This document shows positions 7,425 to 40,429 of a stretch of DNA of 64,000 nucleotides, piece by piece. How positions within the stretch are numbered: position 1 is the stretch's first letter; each line of letters opens with the position of its first letter. The notes under the pieces were generated by a model, which worked only from the letters and a program-made list of their open reading frames with translations, was not told the DNA's origin and made no database searches. Source of the stretch: Euglena gracilis (taxonomy: Eukaryota). Position numbers and translations under genes: made by a program. The stretch spans positions 26,734,954 through 26,798,953 of the forward strand of contig CP154954.1 in assembly GCA_039621445.1 (NCBI GenBank). Direction: 5' to 3'.

Positions 7425-8285
7425 CAGGGAATTCTTAAGGACCCCCGGGGGTCCAGCCTCCGGCTGGCAAAAAGGCTGCTGGCGGGAAATGAGCACAGGG
7501 GTTTTTTTTAAGACCGGGGGGGGGTCCCCCCCACCCCCCCCCCCCCCCCCGGGGGGCCCCCCTGGGGCGGGGGGGTCCCGGGGGACCCACAAAAAATGGC
7601 CGAAAAATTGCGAAAAGTGCTAAAAATAGCATTTTTTCGGCGCCTGCGGCGCCGAAAAGTATATCCCACCCCCCTCCGGGGGCGCCCCCAGGGGGGCGGG
7701 GGGGGCTCGGCCGGACCCACCCGCCCTACCCCCCTCCCCCCCCTGTGTGCACTGTGGCTGTTTTTTTGGTGCCTTTTATCCCTTCTTCTGGCCTGGCACT
7801 GTTGTTCGCCTCTGGCACTTTTTGTCTGTGTGCGTGGAGGTGGCCGGAGCCTGGCGGGACCCCCCCCCCCCCCGGGGGGCCACGACTAAAAAAACCCCTG
7901 AATGAGCAGCTGGCTGGACCCCCCGGGGGGGGGGGGTCCGGGGCTGGAGGAGGTTGGGCTGGGCTGGGTCGATGAAAAACAAAATTTTCTAAAACATTTT
8001 TGCCATTTTAGACATTTTGATGGATGGAGCTAGATCAAGGCTGGGGGCTGTGATGGAGGAAGCTGTGATGAGGGGGAAAAATGCATGGATAGGTGAGCTG
8101 GGCAGCCCAGTTGGCTGTCCAGCCTGCGGCCGGCTGGCCCGGCCTCCGGCCGGGCTGGACCCGACTTTATTTCACTCGACCCCTGGGGGCCCAGCCCGAA
8201 TTTGGGCTGCTGGCTGGATTTGAGCTGCTGGCTGGCTGGACCCCCCCGGGGGGGGGGGGCACCCTCCGGCTTAAGAAATTCCCTG
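7425..8285. mobile_element. hAT-like MITE (outer), containing a nested MITE
   Basis: TIRs CAGGGAATTCTTAAG...CTTAAGAAATTCCCTG; 8-bp TSD ATCGTGAC/ATGGTGAC (1 mismatch). Confidence 0.8.
7496..7900. mobile_element. hAT-like MITE, CAGGGGTTTTTTTA family (nested)
   Basis: TIRs CAGGGGGTTTTTTTAAG...CTAAAAAAACCCCTG; perfect 8-bp TSD AATGAGCA. Confidence 0.88.
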
Positions 8286-10442: not shown

Positions 10443-13400
10443 TTGCCCCTTCCACCATTTGCGGCAGTTTCCCCCTCAGGAGTTCCTCTTCCGCTTGTTC
10501 CCTCACGAGTTCCATTTGCCAACGATGCCGACAAAGTTTGGTGAACCGCTGCAAAAAAAAAAAGAATAGACTTGTTGTTGAACACTATTTGCAAATGCCA
10601 AAAAGAACTGAAATCCACAATTGGAGCCCAGTTTCTTTACCTTCTTGAGCAATTTTTGAGTCTGTTTCAAAAGGGCAAAATCAGCAAATTGTTCCTGAGG
10701 GCTGGGCTGCAAATGAAACCGCTCCGGAGCACATGACAAACGTTTACCGAGTCACAGATAATTTTTTTTGCGGATCACAAAAGGGGGAAAAATAAGTGCA
10801 GTGGCATTGGATTACAAAAGACTTCATCCCATGGCAAAAACATGTCTGCTCATTACCAGAGGATGGAATGCCCATTTTTTTGCCAGTGGGTAAAAGAGAA
10901 TCAGCAACCATTCCTTTCTACAACGCAAGCCTGGAGGAGTGTGAGGCAACCGTGCTGCAGGGTTGAAAGACACCAGCCAGTGCCCCAATCCCATTGGGGG
11001 CAAACACTAACCCTAACCTTGCAACCTGCTGGTTCGTCAAATCAAACCAAACCACCCAAATGGGAACTTCCTGCATCATTGCCAAGGCAATGCACATTGG
11101 GTTCCAGCAACCATGCACATTCCCATGGAAACCAGGCAAGGGCACAACAACTGGGCAAACCACGTTTTGCTATGTCAAGGACTCTGTCCAGACCAAGGGT
11201 CAGGAGGAGTGGTTGGGACCATAGAGACACTTGGTGACCCCCCCTTGGATGGGACCCAAACCCACCCACCCACTTTTTGAAAACCAAAACCACCAAAAAA
11301 AAAACCACCCACCCACAACTCCGGGGGGGGGGGGGTCAACACCACCCACCCACCCAGCCACCCAAAACCCAGCCAACGTCGACCGAAAATGCTGGAAAAA
11401 AATTTTCCGGCCTGGCCTTTGGCCGGCAAAAACCTGACCCGTGGCGCACCCCACTCGGGTTTTCCGCAGAGTGAAATCCGGGGGGCTTCTAATTGGGGGT
11501 TAAGTCAACAAGAGGCAACCGGTGCCAAACAATGCATGCAATGCCCAATGGTGCCCAATGGTGGATTTATTGACTTCTTTACATCAGAGAAATGCATCCA
11601 TGATGTGGAATGTAGCATTTTTGATCAGAATTTTTTAAGCAAATGTACACAGATCAGGAAGGATATGGATGGAGACTTTAAACAATCACTGTTGCGAAAT
11701 TGCGACATTTTGCAGAATAATTTTCGGAAATTTGCGGAAATAGTAAAAAAAAAACAAACAAAGTTGATGCCAAGGTCCAGAACAAGCATATGATGGTTAC
11801 TGCAGATTCGAGCGTGAGGCCAAAACCCCAGGAGGTGAGTAATCCGGATCTGGTTGACTTTTGGACCCCCCCCCCCGGTCTCCCCCCTAGAACCTGACCG
11901 ACCTGAACTTGACTGTTGACTTCCCAGGATGTGCACCGGCTGGGGGACAAGTGGGAGCTACAGAGCGGTATGAAATAGACAGGGGACGACTGCCCAAAAG
12001 CGAGAACGGCCAGGGGCAGAGGGCAGCCAGAACCAAAACACTTCCGGCCCCTGAATTGACCCTGGAGTCATTGCGGAAGAATTGACATCCCGATCCATGC
12101 AAACGTGTGATTTTGACTTCAAGAATTGTTGCACTTTGAGCAGTTTTCCGCCTGAGGAAGAAGATTTTTGAATTATGGGCCGATAAATGGGCATTGTGGC
12201 ATCAGACATTTCCCCCCCAAAAACCAAGTTCTGGATCAACCACTACGGCCGCTGGTTGACCCCAACTAGCTTGTTTTTTAGAGTTTTTTTTTTGTTGAAT
12301 TTATACTTTTTTCTAAAGAAATGAAGTGTTGAGGCCCAAAATTTCCTTAAGCTCAAGTGACAATTCGATATTACCCTGCCTGAATATGTATATAGCCGCC
12401 ACAAGAAATGAACAAATGATGTTAGAAAAAAGAGAAATATCTGCCAACTGCCCTCCTGCCCCTGCTGGGACTACACTACAGGAGCACAGGCAGCACACTC
12501 CAATATTTCCAGTTCAGCCAAAAGCGTGCCTGCCAATGTCCCTGACAGCACCGCCATTGCGCAATGGCACAAGCCTTGGCAGCCAGATGGACCCATAATC
12601 TTCCCCTGGGAATCCAAACTCTGTTGAACGTTCACTGGGATCCCAGTGGACAGTCTACACCCGTGTGAAGGTATTGGAATTTTCAATCCCTGCCAGGATG
12701 AAAGAGAGTGCCATTAGGCCTTCAAAAATCACAATCATTTCTGGTATTTGATCACCCCCCCCAAGTTGGAACATGGGGCCTGCCAGAAATGCTCAGGCAC
12801 TTCGGCAATGTGCCACCCCCAGGGATGCAATGCAAACTGTCCGTTTGATGAAGCAAAGCTGCCCCCCCTTTCCCCTGACCAGGCAGAAATCCAAGGACAC
12901 CCCCAGCAGGGGATGCCTCCTGGACAGGTGCTTGACAGCAGATCTAAGGGGGGGGTTCTGACTTGTCTGGGTGGAGGTGCTGGTCTCAAAGCAGCCACAG
13001 AAGGCTTGCCAAGGGGGTGATGGGGGTGGGTGGAACGGTGCTGTACAGATGAATGGCGGTCCAAACTTCTGTTAGAATGGATCAGGCACAATGGAAAAGA
13101 ACACAGGACAATTTGAGGGTGTGCAAGGGTGTGTAAGAGAATGTGGGGGGGGGGGGCAATGGTTGACAGTGATAACTGAATGCTTGGGAAAACCAAAAAT
13201 TTAGGGCGACAATTTTCAATTATTTCTCACTAGCAGCTCTCAAATTTCACCTCCTGTGAGGGCTGTAAACCCCCCCCACCCCCACCCTCAGGGTTTTGGG
13301 ATTTCTGTAAATTCCCCATGGCGCTCCTTGAGGTAAAAAAAAATTCCTGTCTCAACACATTCAATGAAAAAAACAAAATGGTTTGGAAAATAATCATATT

Positions 13401-14109
13401 TTGGCAAAAAAAAAATGTGTCGATTTCGGGGGAAAAGGCTATTCCTTGCATCTTCACACATCGTCCATCCACCCAAAATATAAAACTGCACTTTTCGACT
13501 TCTTAATTTTTGACCCCGTTCGATCCCTGGATCGGCCGTTGGCCGTCCCTGGGGCCTGAAGATCCCTTTGGGGTGGACTTTGAAAATAAAAACCAACCTT
13601 CCCGTCCCTTATTGGCCGCCTTGACATCCCCTGCCCTTGCCCCTGTCTCAGAACATGGTGCCTACCTTAATGGCCACATGTAAGGGAAGTCCCTCTTGAC
13701 CTTTCTTTCAAAATGGAGGGGCATCCACCCTTGGCAATGCCCTTTTGAACTTTTCATGGGTCATGTGGATTGGAACTGCAACACCGCCCCACAGTTTGCT
13801 TACTGAACCACGTCCCATTGTGGCAGTCTTTCAGGGGGGATCATTTGGGGGGTCCACAATGTTCATTTGTCCAAAGGTCATCAAAGTGGGGTGTGAACTC
13901 GGCGAAAGAAATCAATTTTGTGGGCTGCCCAGAGAAAACAGAATTTTAGGCAGCAAGAGGGTATACAAAGCAATATGAGTTTGAATACAGGAAGCGGATG
14001 CTGCCACGCCACCTGGAATGGAAATTTCACTTTTGACAATTCATCTGGGTGATTGTCAAATTGGATTGTCAAATTTCATCAATGTACATGTGTCCCCTCT
14101 GCCTGGGAA

Positions 14110-14390
14110 ACTGTCACCTGACAGGTCGGCCAGTGCTGAGGACCCTGACAGCTTCCTATCATGACAGGTTGGCCAGCACCCAAGACCCTGACAGTTTCCA
14201 AGGAGGGGGGCCTTGACAGTTTCCTGGGGAGGGCATTTTAAGGGAAAATCAATGGAAAAAAAAAGACCCTGACAGGTTGGTCAGCACCAGGGACCCTGAC
14301 AACTTCCTAAACTGACAGGTTGGCCGGTGACGGGGACCCTGACAGTTTCACGAGCAGGACCCTGACAGGTTCTCAGGCATGACAGTTTCC
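14110..14390 (+). repeat. Degenerate tandem repeats of TGACAGGTTGGCCAG / GACCCTGACAGTTTCC
   Basis: The TGACA(G) core recurs about ten times in about 280 bp. Confidence 0.7.
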
Positions 14391-15287
14391 AATGGGAGGG
14401 AGGGAGGTATGTGTGCAATAGGTACGCACGTCCACACCTGCTCCCCCCCAATCTAACAAACGTCCTGGTCCCTGTTCGGATCACAACTTTTGTCACCTGG
14501 AATTTCATATTATGCATGAATATCTGTGCACATATCTGCAGGGGGGGGGGGGGAATGCGCTCGCCCGGCTTGGGAAAAAATGCGGAAAAAGGCGGAGAAA
14601 AATGCGCAAAAAAAATGCGCAAAAATCACGAAAATGCAAAAATTACCCAAAACCATGCAAAAATGGCACCAAATTTGAAGAAATTATGTAGAATAATGAG
14701 GAAAATGTAAGTTTTAAAAAAAGTCGAAAATTTCAAATTTTTGCAAAAAAAATTGCAAAAATGGTCAAAAAATGCGAAAATTTTGGAAAATCACGAAAAA
14801 ATGTGCCAAAAAGCAAAAAAATGCGCTGAAAAAAATGAAAGAATGCGCAAAAAATGCGAAAAAAATGCGCATTTTGGAAAATTTGAAAAAATGCGCAAAA
14901 ACAGCAAAAAAATGCGAAATGCCCCTGTATCTGTATACATTGAAAATAACACATTCTTGGTCTATGCATTGTTGCCAGGCTATTGCTTAAGGTCCCCAGG
15001 AGGGTCACTGGTTAGCCATTTCACTAGACACTGGAAAAAAGGAGCTAGACCAGCCACCCCCCCCCAGGAAAAATTTTTTCTCCAGGAAAGAAATGAAGTT
15101 TTTAATACATTTTTTTGGCTGATTTTGCAAAAATCCCAAAAATGGCCAAAAATGGGCCTGTTTGGCAGGTTTTGGGAGTCCTCCAAAAAATTGCGGCACT
15201 TCGCGCCGGTCACTGTAAAAATTGCTAGCGGACCCCCTCCAGGGAGGTCATTGGGATTTCGCTCGCCAAATTTGGCCTACTGTGAAC

Positions 15288-15583
15288 CAGGCTTCTTTTT
15301 AAGTCCCCCGGGGGGGGGAGGGGGGGGGTCCCCCCCACCCACCCAGGGTGGCGCGGGACCCCCCCCAAGGGGGGGGGGTCCGCCGACCCCCCCAAAATCG
15401 GGCCCCTTAAAGGCAATTTTCAAAAATTTTCGGCACTTCGCGCCGAAAAGGTATACCCAGCGCCTCCGGCGCGGGACCCCCCCCCCCGGGGGGGGGGGGT
15501 CCGGGCCGGGCCCCCCCACCCCCCCCCCACCGACCCCCCCCGGGGGGGGGGGGGGGGGGTCAGGTGACTTAAAAAGAAGCCTG
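15288..15583. mobile_element. hAT-like MITE
   Basis: TIRs CAGGCTTCTTTTTAAGT...ACTTAAAAAGAAGCCTG; perfect 8-bp TSD CTGTGAAC. Confidence 0.9.
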
Positions 15584-18184
15584 CTGTGAACCCTTAAGCA
15601 ATGGACTGATTGTTGCAAGAAAACTGTTGCACATCAAATTTCGAGAATTTGATGCAACCCTTCATTGATATGGTAATTTTTTGAAATGATTGTTGCTTCT
15701 GTGGCATATTGAAGGTTTTCAACAGCAAGCCTTGTCTGCAATTCTTCAAAAGAATTATGCAGCCTTGGGGCATCAACAGCCATAAATATATCTGGCCTCT
15801 GGGTGAGGAACCAACTTTGAAGGAGGCCAAGTTTCCACATGATCGTTAAAAAGGAATATGAGGCTAAACTGTGAGGGAAGATAACAGCCCTGGGTTTGAG
15901 AAAACTGAATGTTGGGCTCATTACAGACGGCAGAGAGGGGAGTGGTCAGCGTTCGGCGGGAACGCTGTAAAAAGGACCCAACGGGTGCCGCTCTACAACA
16001 GAAGGCGCAAAATACTTTAAAAAATGCGGGAGCACCCTTTGTCCGACTCTTCAAAATGGCACACTGACATGTGAACACCCAGGGCTCATGTACCCCCCCC
16101 TTTGCCCACCGACCGGGTTCCTATGACCCCTGACCGGGGGGGGGGGGGGTCATACACGCCACCCAACCCACCACCCCCGACCAGGGGGTGGTCGGACGGC
16201 TGAGTACAAAAACAAAAAAACAACCCAGTTTTCAAAGCCACCTACAACCCCGGCCAGGGTGGTCGTATGTACCCCCGAAACTGTATCCCCCAACTGGGGG
16301 GTGGTCGTTGTTCATGGGTGGTTAGCGGGCAAAGGAAGGAGGTATGGGGGCTGTGGTGAGTTGGGTGGGATGACATTGGAACCTTCAAGAAAATTATGGA
16401 TGACTGCAGAAAAGCTCATACTGAGAACACATTTCCACTGAAGAGGAAAAAATCACCTCAGGCTCAAAGTGCCAATTTTTTCCAAGTTGAAAAAAAATTC
16501 CCAGCAGAACTGGGGGGGAGGGGCAAACTTGGCACGAAGGGTCCCCTTGGGAACAAAAAAAATCATAGGGGAGCTGAGGGAAAAGTTTGGCGTAGAAATC
16601 GGCACCCCCCAGAAAAATGGAAAGGCCTGGTGGGGGGCCAGGGATGGATGGGAAGCCTTGAGGGTCGGACCCCCCCCCCTCCTACTCGAAACTGAGGGAG
16701 GGCCGAAAATTTTTCGATTTCATGGACGGGCAAAGGGCCGGAAATCTGTTTGAAATCGGTCAAAAATCCCTGATTTTTCTTTGAAAATCAATCCAAAAAT
16801 GCTCATTTTTGAAATTTTTTGAACATTTTTTTGGGGGGGGGGAACACCAACACGTCAAAAAGTGGGCAATATGTCCAAAAGTCAGCAAAAGGGGGGGTTT
16901 TGCTCATTTTCCGGCGCTGTGCGCCGGAAGAAAATTTTCTGCTATTTTTGGCACCTGTTAAGGAGGGGTGGTCCGCCCCCCCCTACCACCTTATCCCCCC
17001 AGGGGGGTGGTGGGGACCCCCCCCCCTACCACCTACCTCAATACCGAAGGGCTCCCTGGGGGGGGGACCCCACCCCACAGCGGTCCTTTACAAAATTTAA
17101 AAAAAAAACTCCGCTGTTCCAGCACAGTCAATGGAAAAAAAACCAGGGAAGTGGGCAAGAAAAATTGGTATTTTCCGGCAAGAAGAGGTCGACACCAGGA
17201 AAAAAATAATCCCTGGCATCCTTGGACTATCGCCCATCCACCCAAATCATCAAAAAATGTGCATTTCGGCTTTTGAGTTTTTGACCCCGTTCAAGTCCCA
17301 GTCCAGCCCTTGGTCGGCAGAAAGGGGGGGGGCAGTCCTTAAGAAAACGAAAAAAAACTTTCCTGACCCTTCCGGTTTCAAAGGACCGCCCTGACCCCCC
17401 CCCACACACAGTTCTGTACAGCCCCTGGCAAATTCCGCCAAAAATCAAAAAATACACAAATGCAGAAAAGGCGCTTGTGCCCTCCCCTGCCTTGAGACCC
17501 ATTTGACGAATTATCAGAACGCATTGCGTCATCCATTGGGTGGATCTCAAGGAATCATTATTATTATTTTTTATTAAATTATTTTTCACGGCGGGAGGGG
17601 TCCCAGCTCAGCCCACCCCACGATGGATGGGGGTCCCTCTTTTTTTTCAGTGCGAAGAACTAACATTTTTGGGACAAAATTGACCCCCAAATCCCCTGTC
17701 CCACCCCAGGGGCTGGTTTGGTGCCGACCCCCCCCCCGGGTCCTTAAAAAAAATCTCACACACCTCATCCATTTGATATTATGCATTTGAACCAATTTCT
17801 TTAAAAAAGGGTCGGACCAAAATGAGTTCCATCTGTTTCGACGAAAACCAAATTAAAAAAAAGTGCTGGGGGGATCGCTGGGGGAGGACCTGAACCAAAA
17901 CCTCACAGAATAAAAAACCACCAAAATGAGAAGATGCCTTGTTCAAAAAAAAAAGAAACCCAACATTACACCGCTTCGCAGACGCTCAATCCACCTCCAT
18001 CATTTGCAGCAAAAGGATGAAATGTGAAATGGGGATTCCAATGTACATCAAAAGGACTGGTGTGCTGACCTCCGCTCAGGATATCACCTGACGGCATCCC
18101 ACATACCAACCCCCAAGGGAAACACATCTCTGGATTGCCAATTCTCAGGTAGCAGTCCCCCCAATCCTCTCGACCTGTTGACTT

Positions 18185-18584
18185 CATAGTGGGCATTTTT
18201 TTAAAAAAAACAATGTGTTTCTTGAAGAAGAAAAAACACCAAAAAAAACCATTAAAAAGACAAAAGGGAAATTTCTTTGAAAAAACTCGTTATGAAACAC
18301 CCAAACCATACTCTTTAAGATAAGATACTTTGAATCCTACTAAGTTCAAAAACTGCCAAAACATGGGTCAAAATGCAGAAAAATGCAATTTTATGACGTT
18401 TTTCATGTTTGTGGAAATGAGTTTTTGGCAGAAAATACCCAGAGGTTGCCAAAATGATTGAAAATAAACATATAAAATTTTTTTGTGCAAAACCTCATGG
18501 GCGTTTTTTTGTTTTTTTAATATTGTCAAATTTTAAAAAAGCAAACAAAAAAACAACCTCAATAAAAACAGGCTGCCCACAATG
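18185..18584. mobile_element. MITE with CATAGTGGGCA termini (hAT- or P-like), older copy
   Basis: TIRs CATAGTGGGCA...TGCCCACAATG; degenerate 8-bp TSD GTTGACTT/ATTAACTT. Inverted relative of 29733-30130. Confidence 0.7.
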
Positions 18585-19421
18585 ATTAACTTGTCAAATT
18601 TGAACTCCGTTTGATAACGAACGTGTTGTGAGGATTTCATAAATAATCAGAGCTGGAAGCGGAAGCCACCTTGGGGTGAACACCAGATGACCCTCATCCA
18701 GATAACCCTCATTGCAGGAGGAGGACTCGCAACGGGCATCCAACCTTGAAAAGGATGGTGGTGACCCATTTTGCAGGGAAGCCTTTTTACCCTTCATTTT
18801 CCAGGGAAGCCTTGAGAAAAATTGCAGGAAAACTGCGGGAAAAGAAAGAGGAAAAATGTGTGGGGGAAAACAGAGGGAAAATTGTGGGAATTGCAGCTAT
18901 TTTTGTCAAATTGGTGATTGCTTTGAGATGTTATTGACACTTTTTCCAACAAAAAACCCAGACAAAGGATTTTGTACTTTCTGGAACACACTGATTTCAG
19001 AAATAATTATAAATAATTTGTAAAAATTGGCAAACTTTGGCAAATTGGCAACAAAATATCAAAAAAATGCACCAGGGTTCCCTCATGAAACGCTCAAGGC
19101 ATGGCCGGAACTCACTTCGCCATCCGTTTCAGGTTCATGCGGAAAAATTGTGGAAAAGCTTCAAAAATGGTGGACAACTGCAGAAATTGCGGGAAAATTG
19201 TGGTTATCAATTCCCCACCCCTGCATTTGAACCAACTGAATGTGACCCGAGAGAACCGAAACCCAAAGCCAAAATCGCAGCTTCGCTCACTCCACTCATT
19301 CATTCCACTCATTCCACTCCACTCATTCCCTGCCCAAGCACCCAAGAGTCAAAAAATTCCTCAAAAGGGCCTCATCATGGCGTTGATTTTTTCCCAAGAA
19401 ATTCCGGGAGTCACCCTGGCG

Positions 19422-19548
19422 GAAGATACCTCGGGCCAAGCCAGGGCTTTCAAACCCAAACATTGGCACTTGGGTCTGCCTGGGCGCGGCAGGGGCATAC
19501 GCCGCGTGGGAGAGAGGGCTCGAGTTAGGCCAGATGCCCATCTGTGGT
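19422..19548 (-). CDS. Candidate downstream exon of the CCCH zinc-finger gene (Pro/Ala/Ser-rich)
   Basis: Bounded by CTG-N5|A and |N3-CAG. Phase-compatible with the 20841-20938 exon, giving KQMP|PQMGIWPNSSPLSHAAYAPAAPRQTQVPMFGFESPGLARGIF. No homology support. Confidence 0.4.
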
Positions 19549-19918
19549 TGCGACAGGGTGCAAATCTGCTGTTGGCTCACCAAAAAAAAGGAATGCTGAG
19601 TTCAAGCCATTTTTCTGTGCGAGCTGAGGGGTTGAAAAAAGGTGCTGGTGCAACCCGGGGGGGGGGGTGCAGGATCCCACCGGCTGCCAGGGTGGACCAG
19701 GGTTCGATACAACGGCAGGTGGGGGGTCGATGAGGTGACCGAAAATATTCACCTCCCAAAATCTGCAGAATGCTATTTTGGAGACTTTTGGGGGAAAAAA
19801 ACTGTCAAAAATGCGAAAAATTTTCGGTGGAAAGCACCAGAAGGGGGAAAAAACCGGAAGGAAAAGACCTTTTGGGGTGGGTCCCGGGCAGGGGTTTTTC
19901 AAGACAGGGGGTGTCCGC

Positions 19919-20237
19919 CATGCTTGTGCTTACCAACCGGGGAGGGGAGGGGGGGGGGTGCTATAGGGAGCCTGCCCCTAGCAGGCACACCCCCCGGGGG
20001 GGGGGATAGGGGTCCGGGCCGGACCCAGAAAATTTTCATTGAAAATGGCCTTTTCCGGGCCCCCGGCGCCTTCGGCGCCGGGGTCGGAGGGGGGTGCCTG
20101 CTAGGGGCAGGCACCCCCCAAAACCCTACCCCCCCCCCGGGGGGGGGGGGGGTGGGGTCGGGTGCTATGGGGTGCCTGCCCCTAGCACCCACCCCCCCCC
20201 CCCCCGTGGGGTAGGCACCCGACTAAGCACAAGCCTG
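19919..20237. mobile_element. hAT-like MITE, CA(G/T)GCTTGTGCTTA family
   Basis: TIRs CATGCTTGTGCTTA...TAAGCACAAGCCTG; perfect 8-bp TSD GTGTCCGC. Confidence 0.88.
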
Positions 20238-20840
20238 GTGTCCGCCCTCTCACCTGGTCCAGGAGGAGGGCACCCCTCCACCGAAACCCCTCACACCCTC
20301 CTTGCACCCTTACACCCTACACCCCACTTTTTACACCCTCCTCTAGGGGTTTCCTACTCTAAACAGTGTCAAAAGGCGCAATAGACGACCAGAGACCGTG
20401 GAAAAAATAAAAATTCCACGACACACTCTTCTGATACCTGATTTGGTGGGCACCTCATACAGAAGGTGTTGGAACTTACAGCCAGAATTGATTTTTCTTC
20501 ACATTTTCGGATTTTTTTTTGGAAAAAGCATTTTCTCTTTGGCCCAGTCCAGTTGGGTTGGAACTTTTTTGAGTCAAAAACCCAGGTCAAATCCAAAAAT
20601 ACCTCAAACAGCCAAAAATAATAATTTTAGGCCATTTTTTGCCCCTTTTGAAAGAAAAAAAACAAATGGCGATCTGTGTTATTTTTTTTAGGTCCAGAAA
20701 GTCCTGTGCTCTTTCTTTCATTGAATCTTTCATTGAATAAATAAATAAAAGTTTCCATCAACTGAGGACAAAAAGAAGCCAAGGACGGACCCTTTTTGAA
20801 ACGACATTACAAGTTTGCCCCCCATTGAGGTTGCCTGTCT

Positions 20841-20938
20841 GGCATCTGTTTTGCTGGAGGAAGCCGGGCTGCTGTTCGCTGGCGAGAAAGGTGGTCGGCC
20901 AGCTTGGTTAACGACATGACAGCCGCTTCATTGTCCTC
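20841..20938 (-). CDS. CCCH zinc-finger gene, exon after the finger (3' boundary uncertain)
   Basis: Encodes EDNEAAVMSLTKLADHLSRQRTAARLPPAKQM. Joins in frame to the finger exon to give [13 protein letters not shown]. Copy at 62715-62812. Confidence 0.65.
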
Positions 20939-21614
20939 CCAGCCAGGCTTCTCTTCTCTGACCCCAGGTGGTCCTTGCCCAAAGCACCACCCCCAGGGAG
21001 ATGCGCAAAACCCCCCTTCTCTGTTTTTTTTGGTGGTGGCACGTTTTCGGCGATCCACAGAGACGATGCTTTGCAGCCCGAATATCACAAAAAACACACA
21101 CACAAAATTGAAAAGGGGGCTGATTGGCAGTTCCTGGTCTGAGAGTCCGTGCAGGGGAAAGCAAAAATCTCAGAAACCTCTTTCATGGGTTTTTACCAGT
21201 TTGAAAAACGAAAATTAGGGGCCGGTGTTTTTTTGTCTAAGGGCGAAGCGGGACAAAAAAACATGGACACCTTCGTTGCTGTGTCCATTTGTTTGAGATT
21301 GAGCATTGTCCAGGCTTCTGCTTAAGGGTTCAGCACCCCCTGGAGGGGGGGGGGGCTCAACTGCAGCTTGTCCAAATTTGGCCAGTTGGAATTCTGTTAC
21401 AAAAAAAAACCAGCCCCAACCGAAAACACGAAACAAAGGCGAGAATTGCAGCAGAAAAGAATATCTCTTTGTTTGCCTGACCTGAACATTGATGGTGCCT
21501 GGCCTGAACATTGATGGTGCTTTGACACTCCCCATCCCAAAAACCGACCCCCTCCCAGAAGAGGGGAAACTTTGAAAATGCCAGTGGCGGGGTCACATTC
21601 AAAAAAGCCTGCTC
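20939..21614 (-). other. Nonconventional (non-GT-AG), euglenid-type intron made of a TIR element plus one TSD copy
   Basis: Minus strand reads exon|GAG-CAGGCTT...AAGCCTG-GCTGG|G (N3-CAG ... CTG-N5|R). The TIR element 20944-21611 is flanked by an 8-bp near-direct repeat CTCCCAGC/CTCCCTGC. Extra pairing TGACCCC/GGGGTCA. Removal restores the frame. Copy at 62813-63487. Confidence 0.7.
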
Positions 21615-21809
21615 CCTGCAGCGCATTTCCTTAGCCCCATGGGCATAGACACAGGTGTCCCCGTAAGGGCACTTCCCAGTCTCCTTCCAATTGCGACACA
21701 GGCGCGTCTTGTACTTGTTGTGGTCCACTGAGTGATCATCGTGATGGGTGCCCGAAACCTTGGCGGCCTTTTCATTCCTCTTGGCCTTGGTCTCAGGGTT
21801 GGATACGCC
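21615..21809 (-). CDS. CCCH (C-x8-C-x5-C-x3-H) zinc-finger RNA-binding protein, internal exon
   Basis: Translation ...[32 protein letters not shown] has the TIS11/ZC3H-type KYKTxL lead-in and canonical Cys/His spacing. Confidence 0.88.
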
Positions 21810-22537
21810 CAACCCAGAAGAAACCAGGATTCTTTCCTTGGAAAAAAAAGAGGGTCAAAAATAGGGGGAAATGGCATTTTCTCCGCAAAATTTTGGCTTA
21901 ACAATCTCAACCCAGCTGGATTGGAATTTTTTCCGCCAACTTTTCAGAAGCTGGTTGGACTCCCTGGCTAGCCAATCGGCTAGACACTGGAAAAAAATGG
22001 ACCAGCTAGACCCTCTCCTCCCCCGGGGGGAAGGGGGGTCCCCCCAACTGGAAAAAAATTTCCTCCGGCGCTGTGCGCTGAGGTGGAAATGAGGTTTTTA
22101 ATAGGTTTTTGGCTGATTTTGATCCAAAAATTCCCAAATGGCCAAAAGCAGGCATTTTTGGCCATTTTTGGGGGTCCCAACAAAAATTCAGTGCTTCGCG
22201 CCGGTCACTGGAAAAAAATTTTCCACTGGCTAGCCCTGCTAGCAGACCCCCCCCCCCGGGGGGGTCTGCTAGAAATCCCACTAGCCAAATTTGGACTATT
22301 TCCAGTCCACCCCCCCCCCGGGGGGGGGGGGGTACTACAATCCCTTCAGCAAAAGCCTGGTCAGCCCCTTCTGGTGGCTGCACCACTGCACTGTGATTGG
22401 CAGGCAGGTGACTGTCAGAGGAAATACATCCTTTTTTCTCTAGACTTCGTACCCAGTTTTTGGTTCCAAGGAAGGGGAATTCCCTGGTTTGGCATGCGCC
22501 TCTGATGGTGGTGTTCTTACGACTCGGGGGTCTGGAT

Positions 22538-23239
22538 CATGCTGTTTTTACCAACCCCAGGGGGGGGGGGTCCGGAGTGCCTGCCCAGGCAGGCACTACC
22601 CCAGGGTTCGATATAAGGACAGGTGGGGGGGTGGTCCGGACCCCCCCCCCTGCGGGCCAGGAGGGGGGGGGGGGGGGGGACACCCCCCCCCCACCTAAAC
22701 AGGTGCGCGGTCTGGGTTACCGAAAAATTTTGACACCCCAAAACGACCAAAAGTGCCATTTTGGGCACTTTTTGGGCAAAAAAATGTGCCAAAAATGCAA
22801 AAAATTTTCGGCGCAAAGCGCCGGAGGAAAAAATCGACCCTTTTTGGGGGGGGTCCCGGGAATCCCCCCGAGGGTCGGTCCGGACCCCCCTGGCAGGTGG
22901 GGGGGAGTGGTCCGGACCCCCCCCCTGCGGGCCAGGAGGGGGGGGGGGGGGGGGGCCCCCCCCCCCCCCAAACCATGTACGCCCTCCTTATATCAAACCC
23001 TGCACTACCCCCCCGGGGGGTCGGATTTCGGCCAGTGCCCAGGCACATTCCTTTGAAAATAGGCCATTTTTGGCTCCCCGGCGCCTTTGGCGCCGGGGTT
23101 GTGCCAGGGCACTTTTGGCAGTTTGCCCTACCCCCCCCCCCCGGGGGGGAGTCGGATTTGGAGTGCCTTGGAATGCCTGCCCAGGCAGGCACCCCCCCCC
23201 CGGGGTGGGGTCGGCACCCGACTAAAAAAAAACAGCCTG
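22538..23239. mobile_element. hAT-like MITE (CA(G/T)GCTGTTTTT family) with a nested MITE
   Basis: TIRs CATGCTGTTTTTA...TAAAAAAAAACAGCCTG; TSD GTCTGGAT/GTCTGGAC. Confidence 0.8.
22602..23002. mobile_element. hAT-like MITE (nested)
   Basis: TIRs CAGGGTTCGATATAAGGA...TCCTTATATCAAACCCTG; perfect 8-bp TSD CACTACCC. Confidence 0.88.
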
Positions 23240-23539
23240 GTCTGGACAAACATTCACTTAGTGACCTGGGGGAGCATTCTTCCCAGGCCCAAACCCACCC
23301 CCCCACTCTCTTTTTGAAAACCCACCCACCCACCCACAATCACCGTGGGTCAACCACTCACCCACCCACCCAAAATCCAGCCAAAATTGGCCGAAAATGC
23401 TGGAAAGAATTCTCTGACCCTCTGGGCTCCTGGATCTGGCCTGGGGGGAGGGGGGACAGTGGGCCGACCCCAGGTTGGCCCACTACGACCCTAGGGTCGC
23501 TGGGGTCGACCCCCCAGGCTGTGTAGTGGGGGGGGGGGT

Positions 23540-25658
23540 TCGGTCGGCGGTGCTTGCGCACCTGGGGCGCCAGCTGGGCTCCCTAGGGGTCACCTGGGAA
23601 TTGCCCGCGTCCCAGTCCCCGTTAGGTGGGCGGCCCCTGTGCAGCTCTGCCATGGGCTCCCTCAGGTGGCCGCTGTGGTTGCAGCCAGGACCCGAGAGTG
23701 ACCCGCCTCTTCCGCGGTGGTGCCTGCGACGACACGGTGGATGAAGGGGCGCCGAATTGCCGGCGCCGCGGGCGAGGTGGCCCCAGCTGAACTCGTTGTC
23801 ATTTCGGCTGGGCGCACGGGAGGAGCCGTCCTCCTGTGTTTCAGGGCTGGCTCCCCGGCAGCTGCCCCTGTGCAAGAGCATCTGAACTCGATGTAGCTCC
23901 GGCGGACGGCAGCGCTGGTGCGGCCTGTGATGCTGGACACACAAGGGACAAAAAGTAGGCTTTCCATCGTCCCGAAAAATGGCTGAACCACGTTTCCGAC
24001 ATACCGCCGGAGGTGATGACTTTCACAGGCCAACGCACCTGATGGGAAGGTCGGAGACCTGGGTGGAGAGGGCACTGCATGTCTTTCGGGACGAACCAGG
24101 TCTGCAGCTCGGAGTCTTGCTCTGCTGTGGTTTTCAGCCGCCGCGAAAAGCCTGCCAACAAGGAAGAGGATCTATCCCCAGCGTCGCTGGGGAAGGCGCA
24201 GCCATGGTCAACCTCCCACAAGAGGAGAAGGGCCATCCCGGACTCGCCCTCCTCGGGTGCCACCGGCTTCAGAAACCGGTGGCACCGCAGCCAGGCGGCC
24301 AGGGTGGCGTTTGCTGCAGCTTTTGCGCGCCTGCAGTGCTGGTACCAGCTGTTGGCTGGAGGCACCTCCCCTGCCTTGGGAACTCGGGACAGCAGAGGGG
24401 ACAACGAGGGCGGGGGGTGCAGACACAGGAGGCCCAACACGCAGCCAATGGAGCCGTCACGTTGCTGCACATTCACCCCTGGGGTTGGAAGGACTCACCG
24501 GTGCTGCGTTCGAAGAGAGCCAGCAAGACCTCTACTGAAGACCCAGCAGCTGATGGGCAGGTCTCCGTCTCCTCCTGTAAAAGGACCAGGCGCTCCCGCA
24601 GCCACTTCAGGCGAACGGGGCCACACGATGGGACCATGCTTGTGCTTACCGACCGGGGGGGGGGGGGGGGGGGGGGGCTATAGGGTGCCTGCCCTAGCAG
24701 GCACACCCGGGGGGGACCCAGAAAATTTTCATTGAAAATGGCCTTTTCCAGGCCCCAGCGCCGAAGGCGCCGGGGTCGGAGGGGGGTGCCTGCTAGGGGC
24801 AGGCACCCCCCAAAACCCTACCCCCCCCCCGGGGGGGTCGGATCGGGTGCTATGGGGTGTCTGCCCCTAGCACCCCCCCCCCCGTGGGGTAGGCACCCGA
24901 CTAAGCACAAGCCTGGATGGGACCTGGGATGATGGCAAAGGAGGTGGGGAGACCGCATGAAAAAAGACATTGCGCACATGCGCAACAGTTTTACATTGCG
25001 CATACGCGCAATGGATAACTGTTGTGCGGGCGCAACATTTACCAACAGCAATGTGTAATGGAAGCCCCTGAGCTTGTGACAATCCCTGTGATGTGTTACA
25101 GGTTGCAGTGTGTCGGGGGGCCCTCTCTCCCCAGATGGTGCTACACGGGCCAGGTGAATTTTGGCCCTTTTGTTGCTTTTTTAGGCTCTGAATATTTCCG
25201 TGTTGCCGACGGAGGTGTCCAGAGGTATGTAAACCCCCCAAATAATACCCCCCCCATTGGGATCCGACTTCAGCCGCCAAAATAATACCCCCCCCCGGTT
25301 TCGGGCCAAAACCGGGCGGGCAGGCACCCTCTGCCTGTCACAACTCCGTCACCGTGAGGCGGCGCTCCGGTGGCAGGTGCGAAGGCTGGCGTTGTCCCAG
25401 CACCCATTCCTGGGGTACCAGGCCCAGACCGTCCGGGACACGTTGTGGGGCGGCGGCAATCAGCTCGCAGCGGCGACTCATCCACTTGGCCAGGCGTTCT
25501 GCGAGCAGGCAATGCAAACGAGCGAGGAAGCGCTGGGCATCCGATGGGGACAAGGGGCAGGCAGGTGGGACTCCGGCAACAGTGCAGCTGCGAGGGGATT
25601 GTGGAAGGACGCCACCCAGTCCTCCGGCGGCAAAGGCAGGGAAGGCGGCATTGCTCAC
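23540..25658 (-). pseudogene. GC-rich coding-like remnants, probably the C-terminal part of the decayed LINE ORF
   Basis: Protein-like minus-strand segments (e.g. AAANATLAAWLRCHRFLKP...LLLLWEVDHG; FLARLHCLLAERLAKW) lie downstream of, and in the same orientation as, the RNase H remnant. No diagnostic motif recognised. Confidence 0.35.
24635..24915. mobile_element. hAT-like MITE, CA(G/T)GCTTGTGCTTA family
   Basis: Same TIRs as 19919-20237; perfect 8-bp TSD GATGGGAC. Confidence 0.88.
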
Positions 25659-25975
25659 CAGGGCGGTCCTTAAGCAAATAAAAAAAAAAACTCCGCTGTC
25701 CCAGCACACTCAGTGAAAAATTTACCGGAAAATGGGCAAATAAATTTTGGCATTTTTCAGCGAGAACAGGTCGACATCAGGAAAAAAAATTGATTCCTGG
25801 CACCCTTGGACCATCATCCATCCACCCAAATCATCAAAAACTGTGTTTTTCGACTTTTTAATTTTTGCCTTTTCCAAGTCCTAGTCCAGCCCTTGGTTGG
25901 CCCTTTGGCCGAAAGGGGGGCGGTCCTTAAGGAAATATAAAAAAAAAACTTTCCTGTCCCCTAAGGACCGCCCTG
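25659..25975. mobile_element. hAT-like MITE, CAGGGCGGTCCTTA family
   Basis: TIRs CAGGGCGGTCCTTA...TAAGGACCGCCCTG; perfect TSD TTGCTCAC. Related copies near 17076-17394 and 13200-13623. Confidence 0.88.
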
Positions 25976-28064
25976 TTGCTCACCTGCAGTGGACCAGTGG
26001 ACAGGGGGGGGGGGGAATGCGCTGGACGGCCCTCGGAAAAAAATGCGCAAAAATGCGCAAAAAAATGCGCAAAAAATGCGCTGAGTTTGTACATTCCTAA
26101 GGGAAAAAAGACTGAGAAAAATTTCCAACAATAAGCCCAAAATCAAACCAAAATTACCAAAAACAGCTGAAATGAAGGCATTTTTGGTTAAAAAAAAAAT
26201 GCACAAGCAAGGCGTCACCCTCTGTTCACCATAACCGACAATGTCAGCCATGGTGCCCCTCACTTGTGACCAGGGGAGTAGAATTCGATGTGGGGTCTCT
26301 GAAAACCCTTAGTGTCCTCATCATCATTGGATGAGTACCCACTCATCACCCAAGGGTTTTTTCTTGAGGCAGGTCCCTTGGGTGGTAAAAAAAGTGCGGA
26401 AATGGGTTCGTTGGTTATACAAATGGGTTAGTTGAACGTGGGCAAAATTCGGTGAGCATGTGGTTTGGTTGGTGTTGAAGAACGGTGTTGAAGAACACCA
26501 ATGTCGAGTTTGTTTTTGACATACGGACAATGTGGACAACATGGACAATAGGGGAAAAAATGGGATATACTTTTCAGCGCCGCAGGCGCCAAAAAAATGC
26601 TATTTTTAGCACTTTTCGCGATTTTGTGGGTCCCCCGGGACCCCCCCCCCGGCGGGGACCCCCCAGGGGGTGGGTGGGTGGGGGGGGAGCCCCCCCCCCC
26701 CCCCCCTTTTAAAAAAAGCCCCTGATGATGACCATGAATTGCCCACAAAAATTTAAAAAATGCTAAAAATTATTTTAAGAAGTAACTGCCTGAAATGGCA
26801 GAAATCCATCCAAAAATGGAAAAGTGTTGTGGTTTTGATTCAAGCTGCCCATATATGCAGAGCTTTTCTTTGCCAAAGATCATCACACTACATCACATCG
26901 CTATGTCTCTCCTTTCTAACATTGAGCGCGACAAACACTCAATGCGCTTCTTTGATCAGTGCATTTGTGATGGTCAAGATTTTTCCCAACCGTGAATGAA
27001 TGCGCAAACTCCAAAACCAGAAATTGGTATTTGGAAATGTCCAAGAACTCCTGTCTTTGATTTTTCTCTATACCACATGTTGGCGTTGGAGTTGTATTGT
27101 CCATTTACAACGATTTGTATTCGAAAAACGGCTCAAAACGGCTTGAAACGAACCAATGTAACTCATTTGTCAAAGGTTGGAATGAAGTGGGACAAATTCT
27201 GAGGTCAATGCGCTTTTGCAGCAATGACATTTCCATTTCAAACCATTCATTTCCGCTTTCTGAACCATTTTGGTCGGTTTTGGGGGGTTCCAACAAAATC
27301 ATTATTCATGACGCAGCATTTTGGACGGAGACTGCGTTTTAAGACACAGGCCTCATGCCTGAAGTCCGGCGGCGTAGACGCACACCCTGTCCTGAGTCCC
27401 TGCACCTAAGACGCGGACTTTAAGGGCAAAAGTGCAAAACACCCGATCCGTGTGCAAAAAATTTCGGAACGTAGGCAAATATTTTGAGATAAAATGCCAA
27501 ACATTTTTAAGACAAAATGTGAACAAATTTTTAACATGTGCAAACATTTTTGAGATAAAGTGCAAAATATTGACCGGAAGTGCAAAAAAATACGGTGTGG
27601 AGTGCGGAAAAATCGGGATGTGCGGCATTGAAAATCGATTAATCGATCACCGGACGAACGAACGATGATTGGGGGGGTCTTGACCGATTGATCGACTTTC
27701 GATTAATCGAACAACCCTGCCGGGAAACGGCGATTGGGGTGGATGCCGGGAAACAAAATGAGGAGGCGTAATGATGAGCGCTTCTCCCAGGAGACCAGGC
27801 ACCTGAGCCACCAGGCCCAGGCGAACGCTGCGGGGAGGTCGTAGATCGTCAACCCTGAGGCGTCTTGCAGGAGCAAGGGATCGTCAAAGCATGGGTGGGG
27901 GGGGGAGACCACGTTGATGCGGCCCGGCCAAGGGCAGCCTCCTTGGCCCAGAAATCGGCGGAGTCGTTCCCCACTGCCTTGGGATGACCGGTCTCAATGG
28001 CGGCCGTGTCATGCGCCCGCACCTTCTCCAGGAGTGGCGCCGTTGAGAGGGAGGAGGCTGCGGC

Positions 28065-28606
28065 CAGGCTTGTGCTTACCGACCGGGGGGGGAGGGGGGG
28101 GGGGGGTGCTATGGGGTGCCTGCCCCAAGAAGGCACACCCCCGGGGGGGGGGGGGGTCCGGGGGGACCCAGAAAATTCTCATTGAAAAAGGCCTTTTCCG
28201 GGCCAGGCTGTTTTTTTACCAACCCCGGGGGGGAGGGGGGGGTCCGGAGTGCTTTTGAGTGCCTGACCAGGCAGGCACTGGGGGGGGGGTCGGATTTTGG
28301 CCTGTGCCCAGGCACATTCCTTTGAAAATAGGCCATTTTTGGCTCCCCGCGCCTTTGGCGCCGGGTCTGTGCTAGGGCACTTGTGCTAGGCACTTGAGGT
28401 AGGGCCGTGTGCCCTACCCCCCCCCCCCCCGGGGGGGTCGGATCGGGAGTGCCTTGAAGTGCCTGCCCAGGCAGGCACCCCCCCCCCCTGGGGTGGGGTC
28501 GGCACCTGACTAAAATACAGCCTGTTCCGGGCCCCCGGCGCCTTTGGCACCTTTAGCCTTTAGCATCCCCTCCCGTGGGGTAGGCACCCGACTAAGCACA
28601 AGCCTG
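28065..28606. mobile_element. hAT-like MITE inserted in the LINE RNase H, itself containing a second MITE (28204-28524)
   Basis: Outer TIRs CAGGCTTGTGCTTA...TAAGCACAAGCCTG with TSD GCTGCGGC. Inner TIRs CAGGCTGT...ACAGCCTG with TSD TTCCGGGC. Duplicate at 32462-33008. Confidence 0.9.
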
Positions 28607-29334
28607 GCTGCGGCGATGATCTGGCGCACTACCGGGGGGGGGGGGGATTTCGTGCCAGAGAAATTTTGCGGCGACAAATTTCGCGGATGACAAATTTCGT
28701 GGGATTCCTTAAAAATGCCCGAAAATATTTTGCGGGATTTTTTTTCTGTGAAGCAAAAAAGGGAAGCCTTGAGCACCTGAAAGGAAATACACAGACAAAA
28801 ATTTCGCGGGATTCCTTAAAAATGTCTGGAAATATTTCGCGGGATTTGCTTCCGCGAAAATTGTCTGGCAAATTTTCTCTAGAGCAAAATTTTTGCCCCC
28901 CCCCCCCCGGTGGGGACATGAGGGGAGACTGGAGGACACACGGAAGGGAGAAGAGATTCCCCCCTGCCAGCGTTTGGAGGGAGGTCAGTAAGTCTGTCAA
29001 GATGTGCGGGGGGGGAGCCTCCGCCGCCGTGCGTAGGGCCACCAACTCGCAGAGGGTGGAGCTCAAGGGACCTGGAACAGAACAGGTGAGGGCAGACTCG
29101 GTGTCTGGGGCCCAGACCGCGGCTCCCCCGGAGGACGCTAAGGAGTCATCTGTGAAGACGGCACCCGGAGGGAGGAAGTCATTAACCGGCGTGAGGACAA
29201 TCTGTCCTGGGTAGGCCTGCTCGGGCAGAGGCGCGGCCAGGCTGCAGACCGGACGAGCGCAAGCCTGGTTGCGCACCACACGCCATCCCACTGCGAGGGC
29301 AGAGCGCAGAGCGGAGGATGTTTCTGCCCAGGTT

Positions 29335-29433
29335 TAGGATAATGACATTCGTGAAAAGTGGTCGGAAAGAAAAGGAAAAAAATCGTGAAATTTCGTGAAA
29401 TTTCAGGGGCCGGAAATTTCAGTCACCACCCTG
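29335..29433. mobile_element. 99-bp degenerate MITE
   Basis: Imperfect TIRs TAGGATAATGAC...GTCACCACCCTG; perfect 8-bp TSD CCCAGGTT. Confidence 0.65.
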
Positions 29434-29732
29434 CCCAGGTTGGGCCCGGGCAGGCGATTGCCCGGTGGACGAAGCCTGAGATGGCAAAGGTGTTGCCCAG
29501 GGTCTGGAGCCATACCAATTGCAGAAACCGCATGGGCGACCGGGTGTGCCACAGCAGATTCTCCCAACGGGCCCCCCACTGCCGCAGCGGGGAGCGCCAG
29601 GTGTTCAAGCGCAGGGGCTTGTGACCCATGGCCGCCACCCCGGCGGACATGAGCCGCTGGGGGGCCATCGGCTTGAGATCCCGGATCTGGTACACACCTG
29701 TGGGAGGACAGTGGCGCGCCACAGGAGGGAGC

Positions 29733-30130
29733 CATAGTGGGCACGCCTGTTTTTTTTGACGTTGTTTTTTTGTTTTTTTATTTCTAACAATGTTTTTTTT
29801 AAAAAAAACAAAAAACACGCCCACTAGGTTTTGCAGAGAAAATTTTTTGAATGTGTATTTTCGGTCATTTTTGGCAACTTTTGGGTCAGTTTTACCAAAA
29901 ACTACCTCCTGTAAAAAATGGAAAAAGTCATAAAATTGCATTTTTTTGCTTTTTTGGATGTTTTCGACCATTTTTGGCACTTTTGAACTGAGTAGGATTC
30001 AAAATATGGTTTGGGAGTTTCATAATGAGTTTTCTGAATGAAATCTCCCTTTTGCTTTTTGATGTTTTTTTAGTGGTTTTTTTTAAAAAAAACACGTTGT
30101 TTTGTTTTTTTTAAAAAAATGCCCACTATG
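29733..30130. mobile_element. MITE with CATAGTGGGCA termini (hAT- or P-like)
   Basis: Perfect 11-bp TIRs CATAGTGGGCA...TGCCCACTATG; perfect 8-bp TSD GAGGGAGC. Interrupts the LINE. Confidence 0.88.
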
Positions 30131-30847
30131 GAGGGAGCACAGGGAGGACGGCAGGGGGAGCCTTCAGCCTGCGCAGGGTCTCCAAGGCCTTGCCCAGGCG
30201 AGGGGCGAAGTGCACCTCCGAGGCCTGGGGCTCTGGCAAGCCCAGCTCCACACCGACAAAACGAAAACCTGAAGAGGAAACAATGTCCAGGTCGCCCAGC
30301 TGGAGGCATGCTCGGATGAGGGCCGTCATTTCTGTGGCCGAGGCGGCAATCAAGGCCACATCGTCCGCGAAGCTGATGGAGGGCAGTCGGATACCCGCCA
30401 CCGGCACGCCCATATCGCTGGCAGCCGCCCAGCGGTGGAAGGTCTCCAATAGAATATTGAGGAGATCCGGGCTGTGTTGTGCGCAGACCCTGGGGTCGGC
30501 CCACCACACGACCTCACCCCCCCCCAAAAACACACTGGAATTTTCTTGTGTGTTCAATCCACGCCACTCAAAGAACGAACATTTTGGGGAGGGGGGCAAA
30601 TCGAGAGTCGGTGAACACCCTATTTGTCTAAAGCCAACTGGGAGGCCTTGTGCAAGCAGCCAAAATGGCCAAAATGGATGGACACAGTTCAAAAAAGGTC
30701 AGAAAAATGACATAAAAGGCCCAGCATTTCCTAAACTTATTAAAAATATTTGAAAACATCCCAAAAAAATGATTGACGATCTGCCAGAAATTTGCCCAAA
30801 ATGAAGCCTCAATGGATTGAACACGACATCAAAAAATCCATGATGAC

Positions 30848-31127
30848 CAGGGGTTTTTTTAGTCGTGGACCCCCGGGGGGGGGGAGGGGGGGTGCATGGT
30901 GGGTGGGTCCGGCTGAGCCCCCCCCCCCGGGGGGGGGGGGGGTCCCCTTGGAGGGGGGTGGGATATACTTTTCAGCGCCGCAGGCGCCAAAAAAATTTCT
31001 ATTTTTAGCACTTTTCGCGATTTTCGGCCATTTTTTGTGGGTCCTCCGGGACCCCCCCCCCCGGGGGGACCCCCCAGGGGGTGGGTGGGTGGGGGGGACC
31101 CCCCCTGTTTTTAAAAAAAAACCCCTG
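30848..31127. mobile_element. hAT-like MITE, CAGGGGTTTTTTT family
   Basis: TIRs CAGGGGTTTTTTT...AAAAAAACCCCTG; perfect TSD ATGATGAC. Confidence 0.88.
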
Positions 31128-40138: not shown

Positions 40139-40429
40139 CAGGGGTTTTTTTAAGACCAGGGGGGGAGGGGGGAGGGGGTCGGCACCCACCCCCCCCCCCC
40201 CCGGGGTGGGCCCCCCGGGGGAGGGGGGGGGGCTCCCGGGGGGGCCCACTTTTGCCCGAAAATGCTAAAAAAAGCACCTTTTCAAAATTTTCGGTTCCAA
40301 AGGCGCCTAAAAAGATATACCCACCAGCCCCTACCCCCACCCCCCCGGGGGGGAGGGGGGTCCAAGGGACCCACCCACCCGACCCCCCCTCCCCCCGGGG
40401 GAGGGGGTCCAAGACTAAAAAAACCCCTG
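40139..40429. mobile_element. hAT-like MITE, CAGGGGTTTTTTTA family
   Basis: TIRs CAGGGGTTTTTTTA...TAAAAAAACCCCTG; perfect TSD GTCAGTGT. Confidence 0.9.

Follow-up and report, generated by a model that had tools for sequence, protein, structure and literature searches.

We have analyzed a stretch of 64,000 nucleotides of nuclear DNA from Euglena gracilis (contig CP154954.1, positions 26,734,954 to 26,798,953 of the forward strand), called the window in what follows and in whose numbering all positions are given. On its minus strand lie the three 3' exons (X, Y and Z) of a gene coding for a CCCH zinc-finger protein. Exons X and Y are separated by a nonconventional intron of 676 nt, the subject of this work, whose inverted ends begin and end with the same letters as several miniature transposable elements with inverted repeats (MITEs) that are found free in the same window.

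The 676-nt intron of the CCCH zinc-finger gene

In the DNA, a CCCH zinc finger stands at the end of one minus-strand frame and a second frame resumes with EDNEAAVMSLTKL. The translation of exon X ends in ...GAKEMRCR and that of exon Y starts with EDNEAAV.... A protein search with the read-through frame matched four of 25 candidates (P0001-P0004). One of them, P0003 (270 aa, named a Euglena transcript by its source), has both exons joined, i.e., the 676 nt are skipped and ...MRCR runs directly into EDNEAAV... (KEMRCREDNEAAV). P0001 and P0002, from other assemblies, are frames that read through this intron, and P0004 is a homologue from another source in which the residue spacing at the junction is unchanged, with none extra or missing. 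When P0003 was placed on the window by tblastn, residues 130-190 fell at 21794-21612, residues 190-227 at 20938-20825 and residues 227-270 at 19550-19419, and the same three pieces recurred ca. 41.9 kb further along the window. The exon upstream of X gave no tblastn match to P0003 in the window; 69 reads (run X24) continue past 21788 into an exon outside it, encoding ...KKQADPSIES as in P0003. A metagenome scan with the homologue P0004 gave 141 pattern matches, none of them confirmed, and no genomic copy from another euglenid. The features of the gene are as follows:

21615-21788, minus strand: exon X, holding the CCCH zinc finger (tblastn); its 5' edge at 21788 is preceded by CTG plus 5 nt
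20939-21614, minus strand: nonconventional intron, 676 nt, GAG-CAG...CTG-GCTGG followed by G as the first exon base (sequence, transcript-derived protein and RNA contig; splice code of PMC12501133)
20825-20938, minus strand: exon Y, EDNEAAV...DRQPQ (tblastn and RNA contig)
19422-19547, minus strand: exon Z, PQMGIW...GIF (tblastn and RNA contig)
62813-63487, minus strand: the twin intron, located in the second copy of a segmental duplication, with a one-base difference in a C run and with the exon variant of all RNA reads

The removal of the intron was also followed in RNA. Read runs of one organism contained 0.90-0.92 of the words sampled from 19300-21900, and four runs were aligned onto positions 11000-30900 of the window. 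In an RNA contig of 492 nt (run X15, record 10), letters 1-177 correspond to 21788-21612 and letters 289-415 to 19547-19421, the 111 letters between the two blocks being the length of exon Y (20935-20825). The mRNA junction reads ...TGCAGG and then GAGGAC.... In run X21 the intron bin had a depth of 2.19/3.18 and the bins next to it 20.7/27.7 and 31.4/45. GGGAG is present at both sides, a slide of 5 nt, so that six cut positions yield an identical mRNA. The first and last dinucleotides of these equivalent cuts are GG/CT, GG/TG, GA/GG, AG/GG, GC/GA and CA/AG, none of the six being GT-AG or GC-AG.

The region is duplicated. Positions 1-22127 are repeated at 41919-64000 with 99.1% identity (a segmental duplication of 41.9 kb), and the CCCH 3' exons are thus present twice. 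At position 21772 every RNA read carried the base of the other copy (120/120, 153/153 and 74/74), and a DNA run showed both bases (141/235 in summed depth). The copy at 20939-21614 thus appears to be silent, and the twin at 62813-63487 appears to be the expressed type. For this copy it could be argued that there is no real splicing, only an artefact of assembly or of a paralogue, given that it is absent from the RNA, or else that a conventional spliceosomal intron with unusual sites is present. Either account is highly improbable. The twin intron is the same but for one base and matches the RNA, the junction is found in both the RNA contig and the transcript-derived protein, and with no GT-AG or GC-AG pair among the equivalent cuts conventional splicing is rejected.

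The ends of the intron agree with what is known of this class. Knock-in genetics in Euglena have given the code 5'-N3CDG-/-CH'GN5-6|R, in which CAG and CTG are essential for nonconventional splicing, the 5' spacer of 3 nt permits no change and the 3' spacer has its optimum at 5 nt, with 6 tolerated (Nomura et al., 2025, PMC12501133). Our intron starts with GAG followed by CAG at +4 to +6, which is N3-CDG, and ends with CTG at -8 to -6 and GCTGG, after which the purine G starts the exon, which is CHG-N5-R. Its ends form a duplex of -33.1 kcal/mol, compared with -16.1 +/- 3.4 for shuffled ends, and none of 1000 shuffles was as strong. A fold of the whole intron, made on a slice extending 1 nt too far at the 3' end, shows pairing of positions 2-14 with 661-674 and of 18 and 20-24 with 652-658. 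Pairing of the two ends would build a long stem and bring the cut sites together for the cutting and joining machinery. Nonconventional introns are released as full-length circular RNA (PMC11282704).

The first-pass annotation, made from the letters of the DNA, had proposed that the host was a euglenid and that an intron without GT-AG borders was spliced out at this junction, with CAG and CTG at the positions just given. All of this is borne out, and the intron is a plain member of the known nonconventional class, sharing with those described (PMC12501133; PMC11170887) the non-GT-AG borders, the positions of CAG and CTG, the spacers of 3 and 5 nt, the purine, the paired ends and the sliding cut. 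The splicing mode is identical; what is additional here is a 7/8 repeat that covers exactly both spacers, together with nearby free elements that have the same ends and exact 8-bp duplications.

An interrupted 8-mer and the free MITEs of the window

On the plus strand CTCCCAGC at 20936-20943 is followed by CAGGCTT from 20944, and AAGCCTG ending at 21611 is followed by CTCCCTGC at 21612-21619:

20944-21611: element between inverted termini, 668 bp; 7 nt are perfect and pairing extends to ca. 23 nt including an internal bulge
21612-21619, minus strand: 5' copy of the 8-mer, of which 5 nt belong to the end of exon X and the following 3 to the start of the intron
20936-20943, minus strand: 3' copy of the 8-mer, identical at 7/8 positions, with 5 nt closing the intron and the following 3 opening exon Y

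Both the termini and the direct repeat had been noticed in the first-pass annotation, which added that the 3 nt before CAG and the 5 nt after CTG make up one repeat unit; this arithmetic holds in the letter positions at the verified junction. Since exon X and the intron both end with letters 1-5 of the 8-mer, and the intron and exon Y both start with letters 6-8, 3 + 5 = 8 nt of repeat leave with the element and one copy is kept in the mRNA. The single mismatch falls within the first five letters on the gene strand. Chance would give an identity of at least 7/8 in the register fixed by the code with P = 3.9e-4. In simulated sequences of 41.9 kb, 7/8 pairs appeared 5 times in 50 runs (ca. 0.1 per window), and therefore the repeat is informative only through its exact position on a verified splice junction. 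As a separate observation, from a comparison of 21303-21319 with 20929-20952, a solo MITE terminus inside the intron is immediately preceded by the CATTGTC (plus strand) that also precedes the 8-mer next to exon Y, as though at the solo terminus the 8-mer were missing.

We have made a blind scan of the unique 41,918 bp of the window for exact inverted termini of 7 nt starting with CAG and located 40-3000 bp apart. Among the 315 pairs obtained, 10 had identical flanks of 8 nt (8/8), for which the binomial expectation was 0.009 and none appeared in 50 Markov simulations. In all 10 the flank repeat was perfect only at length 8 when lengths 5-12 were compared. Eight of them are independent, the other two being copies within an internal 3-kb duplication. 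Flanks of 7/8 were found in two pairs, an 861-bp element at 7425-8285 and the intron itself, against an expectation of 0.2 and 5 cases in the 50 simulations. The elements with perfect flanks measure 280-542 bp and most consist of arms with G/C runs around an AT-rich center. Free relatives with CAGG...CCTG ends and exact 8-bp duplications, already noted at this locus, are thus present:

7496-7900: free MITE, 405 bp, 8/8 duplication; nested in the 861-bp element 7425-8285 (7/8 duplication)
15288-15583: free MITE, 296 bp, with the same starting heptamer as the intron; inverted ends 16/16, duplication 8/8
22602-23002: free MITE, 401 bp, 8/8 duplication; absent in DNA contigs from elsewhere in the genome (joints 22599>23008 and 22602>23015, skipping 408 and 412 nt)
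25659-25975: free MITE, 317 bp, 8/8 duplication, with an AT-richer body
28065-28606: free MITE, 542 bp, 8/8 duplication; holds the nested MITE 28204-28524 (8/8), and both recur at 32462-33008
30848-31127: free MITE, 280 bp, 8/8 duplication
40139-40429: free MITE, 291 bp, 8/8 duplication

Nesting is therefore found in three places: 7496 in 7425, 28204 in 28065, and the element at 22602 in a repeat that is without it at its other places in the genome. Summed DNA contig depth in the bins bearing MITEs was 10^3-10^4 times that of single-copy bins, a figure that is not a copy number but by which the elements appear to be highly repeated in the genome. Two further repeats were seen in the window. 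The internal 3-kb duplication (26561-29579 and 30959-33977, 97% identity) has the nested MITE pair in both copies, and a tandem array at 5277-6302 (and 47193-48194), with self-match shifts of ca. 19 bp, is the source of spurious inverted pairs starting with CAT and having identical flanks. Just left of CAGG on the plus strand, which is position 8 of the duplication, C is found in 7/9 free elements (e.g., 15280-15287 and 40131-40138). The published intron logo also has C at +3 (PMC11170887), which, given the strands and the few cases, may only tentatively be equated with the C of the free elements.

Relation of the intron to the free elements

The heptamer at both ends of the intron is that of the free MITEs at 15288 and 28065. 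We have built a matrix from the 18 free termini, scoring positions 4-18 with the CAG itself excluded. The intron termini scored 4.43 and 3.58, which ranks them in the highest 1.2% and 1.4% of the 1557 CAG sites and inside the range of 0.2-15.5 obtained for true termini when left out. In the logos of E. gracilis nonconventional introns CCAGG occupies +3 to +7 and CCTG -9 to -6 (PMC11170887), i.e., the four-letter ends found in the free elements. The element in the intron is also small and non-coding (668 bp, internal frames without relatives). No Rfam match was found in the intron, and the seven weak matches obtained, all below the gathering threshold, were in G/C hairpins of a MITE located in intron 2. 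We take the origin of the intron by insertion of a small CAGG...CCTG DNA transposon with an 8-bp target duplication to be probable on the strength of these sequence features.

In the competing view we are dealing with an ordinary nonconventional intron, and its ends do not derive from a transposon, the stem and the CAG and CTG being kept by selection for splicing. The 7/8 repeat would then be due to chance or a by-product of another route of origin, and MITE fragments would have landed in an older intron. We consider this rather unlikely. It would leave to chance that the repeat falls in the sole register set by the splice code, with the low probability given above. Nor would it account for both termini being like the free-MITE consensus beyond the CAG required for splicing, or for the heptamer and the 8-bp spacing being held in common with free elements whose duplication is exact. 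In its favor are the single-copy body, the degenerate termini, the lack of flank repeats at the other introns of the gene, the direct repeats that flank conventional introns too and the 7/8 pair that chance would produce once in every 10 windows or so.

The following observations, some of which give substance to those points, weigh against the insertion origin. The flanks are identical at 7/8 and not 8/8 positions, and the inverted ends of the intron, although perfect over 7/7, match at 9/16 ungapped positions vs. 12-16/16 in the free elements. Outside the duplicated locus the window contains no further copy of the intron body, which is unlike the bodies of the nine free MITEs and matches them only in G/C runs. 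A search with the intron-internal frame among 5.8 billion proteins gave one match in nine candidates, which was the same locus. A single-copy DNA contig (run X1, record 6, depth 150) spans 20237-21063 unbroken across the end of the element at 20944. No transposase family was detected in a Pfam scan of 10 open reading frames (ORFs) of the window. The upstream intron ends with CTG and 5 nt before the A at 21788, and it matches a duplication at 2/5 testable positions. CAG is missing from the 5' end of intron 2 (20824-19548, 1277 nt, minus strand, slide 3), whose flanks agree in register at 1/8 positions, and the flanks of the candidate last intron match 2/8, counted by eye. In E. agilis short direct repeats flank conventional introns as well and a 3' spacer of 6 nt is tolerated (PMC12501133). 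No support comes from the other introns of the gene; loss of the signal is to be expected in old introns.

Some further features of these introns were recorded. The 3' end of intron 2 has CTG and 5 nt followed by A, its 5' end is off the published code, and the right end of a MITE at 20237 lies inside it; read by eye, a 7/8 direct 8-mer is found 2 nt outside a CAGGG-type inverted end, off the expected register. The candidate last intron (15283-19421, minus strand) would start after the end of exon Z at 19422/19421 with CGC-CAGGG. Its 3' end would be the terminus of the MITE at 15288 (CTG, 5 nt of the duplication, CAG TAG), one of only two downstream sites with a glutamine and stop as in P0003. 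Its end duplex of -22.6 kcal/mol compares with -14.4 +/- 3.3 for shuffles, 18/1000 of which reach -22.6, and the bin depths are consistent with it.

The first-pass annotation had taken the intron to be exactly a MITE, and in this it went too far: apart from the duplicated locus the body is single-copy in the searches of the window and of protein space, and it contains a terminus belonging to another MITE family:

21311-21395, plus strand: solo MITE terminus within the intron, ca. 85 nt alike to the terminus ending at 22359 (local alignment score 79); terminus score 11.6, in the top 0.06% of CAG sites

Origin of the intron as a dimer was considered and rejected, the two halves not being alike (score 38, compared with 26 +/- 4 and a maximum of 40 for shuffles). 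With a foreign solo terminus, no known second copy and unrelated halves, the element is composite and old, not a fresh member of a family. Copies with similar bodies were found neither in the window nor in protein space, and these searches revealed no introns of other genes made up of such copies.

The assignment to a superfamily is a separate question. Elements of the hAT superfamily produce 8-bp target duplications with a pattern of T in position 2 and A in position 7, and their termini start with CAG or similar letters. All 18 free termini and both intron termini start with CAGG, and the duplications of the free elements are perfect only at length 8. T is present at position 2 in 6/9 free duplications and A at position 7 in 4/9 (jointly 10/18, P = 0.005); the intron 8-mer has, on the plus strand, T at position 2 and G at position 7. 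The small non-coding bodies are also those of hAT MITEs. On the other side, a reverse transcriptase and a weak match to RNase H were all that the Pfam scan of the 10 long ORFs returned, and two Merlin families with 8-bp duplications are reported in E. gracilis. Merlin inverted repeats are stated to end in GG (PMC8101967).

The hAT label given at first reading thus keeps its 8-bp duplication and its CAG start and is unproven as a name, given the lack of a visible transposase and the Merlin duplications of the same length in the species. What the label draws on is how long the duplication is, the start with CAG and a target pattern that is weak, and by our estimate, which is not a computed value, the elements are probably hAT-like, with Merlin unlikely and any other superfamily equally so. 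That the insertion origin is right and the elements nevertheless belong to Merlin or to another superfamily that duplicates 8 bp seems improbable: the Merlin families of the species and the ORFs without a hAT transposase speak for it, whereas the CAGG of all free termini does not fit repeats ending in GG and the frequencies of T and A in the duplications lean weakly towards the hAT pattern. The matches to reverse transcriptase (RVT_1, E = 6e-13) and RNase H (weak, below the Pfam cut-off) lie in adjacent frames of a retroelement remnant at 36474-37897 on the minus strand.

Proposed origin and the splice code

We propose the following sequence of events. A small DNA transposon with CAGG...CCTG ends would insert into a coding exon and duplicate 8 bp of its target, in the manner of the related elements that lie free in this window. 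With its cuts placed 3 nt ahead of CAG and 5 nt behind CTG, the code would then remove from the RNA the element with one copy of the 8 nt, and the reading frame that existed before the insertion would be restored. The interpretation of the first-pass annotation is therefore partly supported. Its reading of the intron as transposon plus duplication is plausible, has independent support in the free elements, and rests on one intron.

As that annotation had stated, a transposon origin is already in print (PMC3935182; PMC11282704). An origin of these introns from MITEs was proposed in 2014 in a paper stating that transposable elements were yet to be identified in the genomes of euglenids (Milanowski et al., PMC3935182), and in a 2024 review the legend of Fig. 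3D presents CAG/CTG as "TIR" and names the repeats at the junction "TSD" (PMC11282704), the abbreviations for terminal inverted repeat and target-site duplication. The origin of euglenid nonconventional introns was called open in 2018 (PMC6221363) and unclear in 2025 (PMC12501133). Our proposal shares with the MITE hypothesis its central idea, that the inverted ends are transposon ends, that the repeats are target duplications and that insertion into an exon gives rise to an intron. The available text of PMC3935182 and PMC11282704 names no duplication length, superfamily or matching free element, and "hAT", "8 bp" and "8-bp" have no occurrence in a whole-word search of PMC11282704. A literature search confined to running text found no paper in which the introns of Euglena are linked to hAT or to a duplication of 8 bp. 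The MITE idea itself is thus already published, and what we did not find in print is the sum 3 + 5 = 8 and the matching free elements.

Similar situations are known in other eukaryotes. In the introners of Micromonas and Aureococcus and in the MITE-derived noncanonical introns of Fritillaria and Amoebophrya there is the same insertion into exons, with the duplication supplying a splice signal and the element being removed exactly (PMC11282704). At least the introns of Fritillaria are spliceosomal and introners form families of similar copies in genes (PMC11282704), whereas here the machinery is the nonconventional one and no second copy was found.

One window brings together a verified intron with an 8-mer interrupted across its two spacers, free elements with the same four-letter ends (some of them with the same heptamer) and the link of 3 + 5 = 8 to spacers fixed by knock-in genetics. 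Extended to the code itself, the idea is more tentative: the 3 nt before CAG and the 5 nt after CTG may be the mirror, at the level of RNA, of the 8-bp staggered cut made by hAT-like MITEs with CAGG termini, and any insertion of these into a transcribed exon, in either orientation as the symmetry of the ends would allow, would possibly be born precisely removable. If so, both the predominance of nonconventional introns and the sliding cuts that most of them have would be explained, and, if it applied genome-wide, the splice code would be an imprint of integration geometry. A free MITE placed with its duplication in an exon is then predicted to be spliced out. The MITE hypothesis, which previously had no matching transposon, is in this way given a concrete and testable account of how euglenid nonconventional introns and the rule by which they are spliced may have originated.

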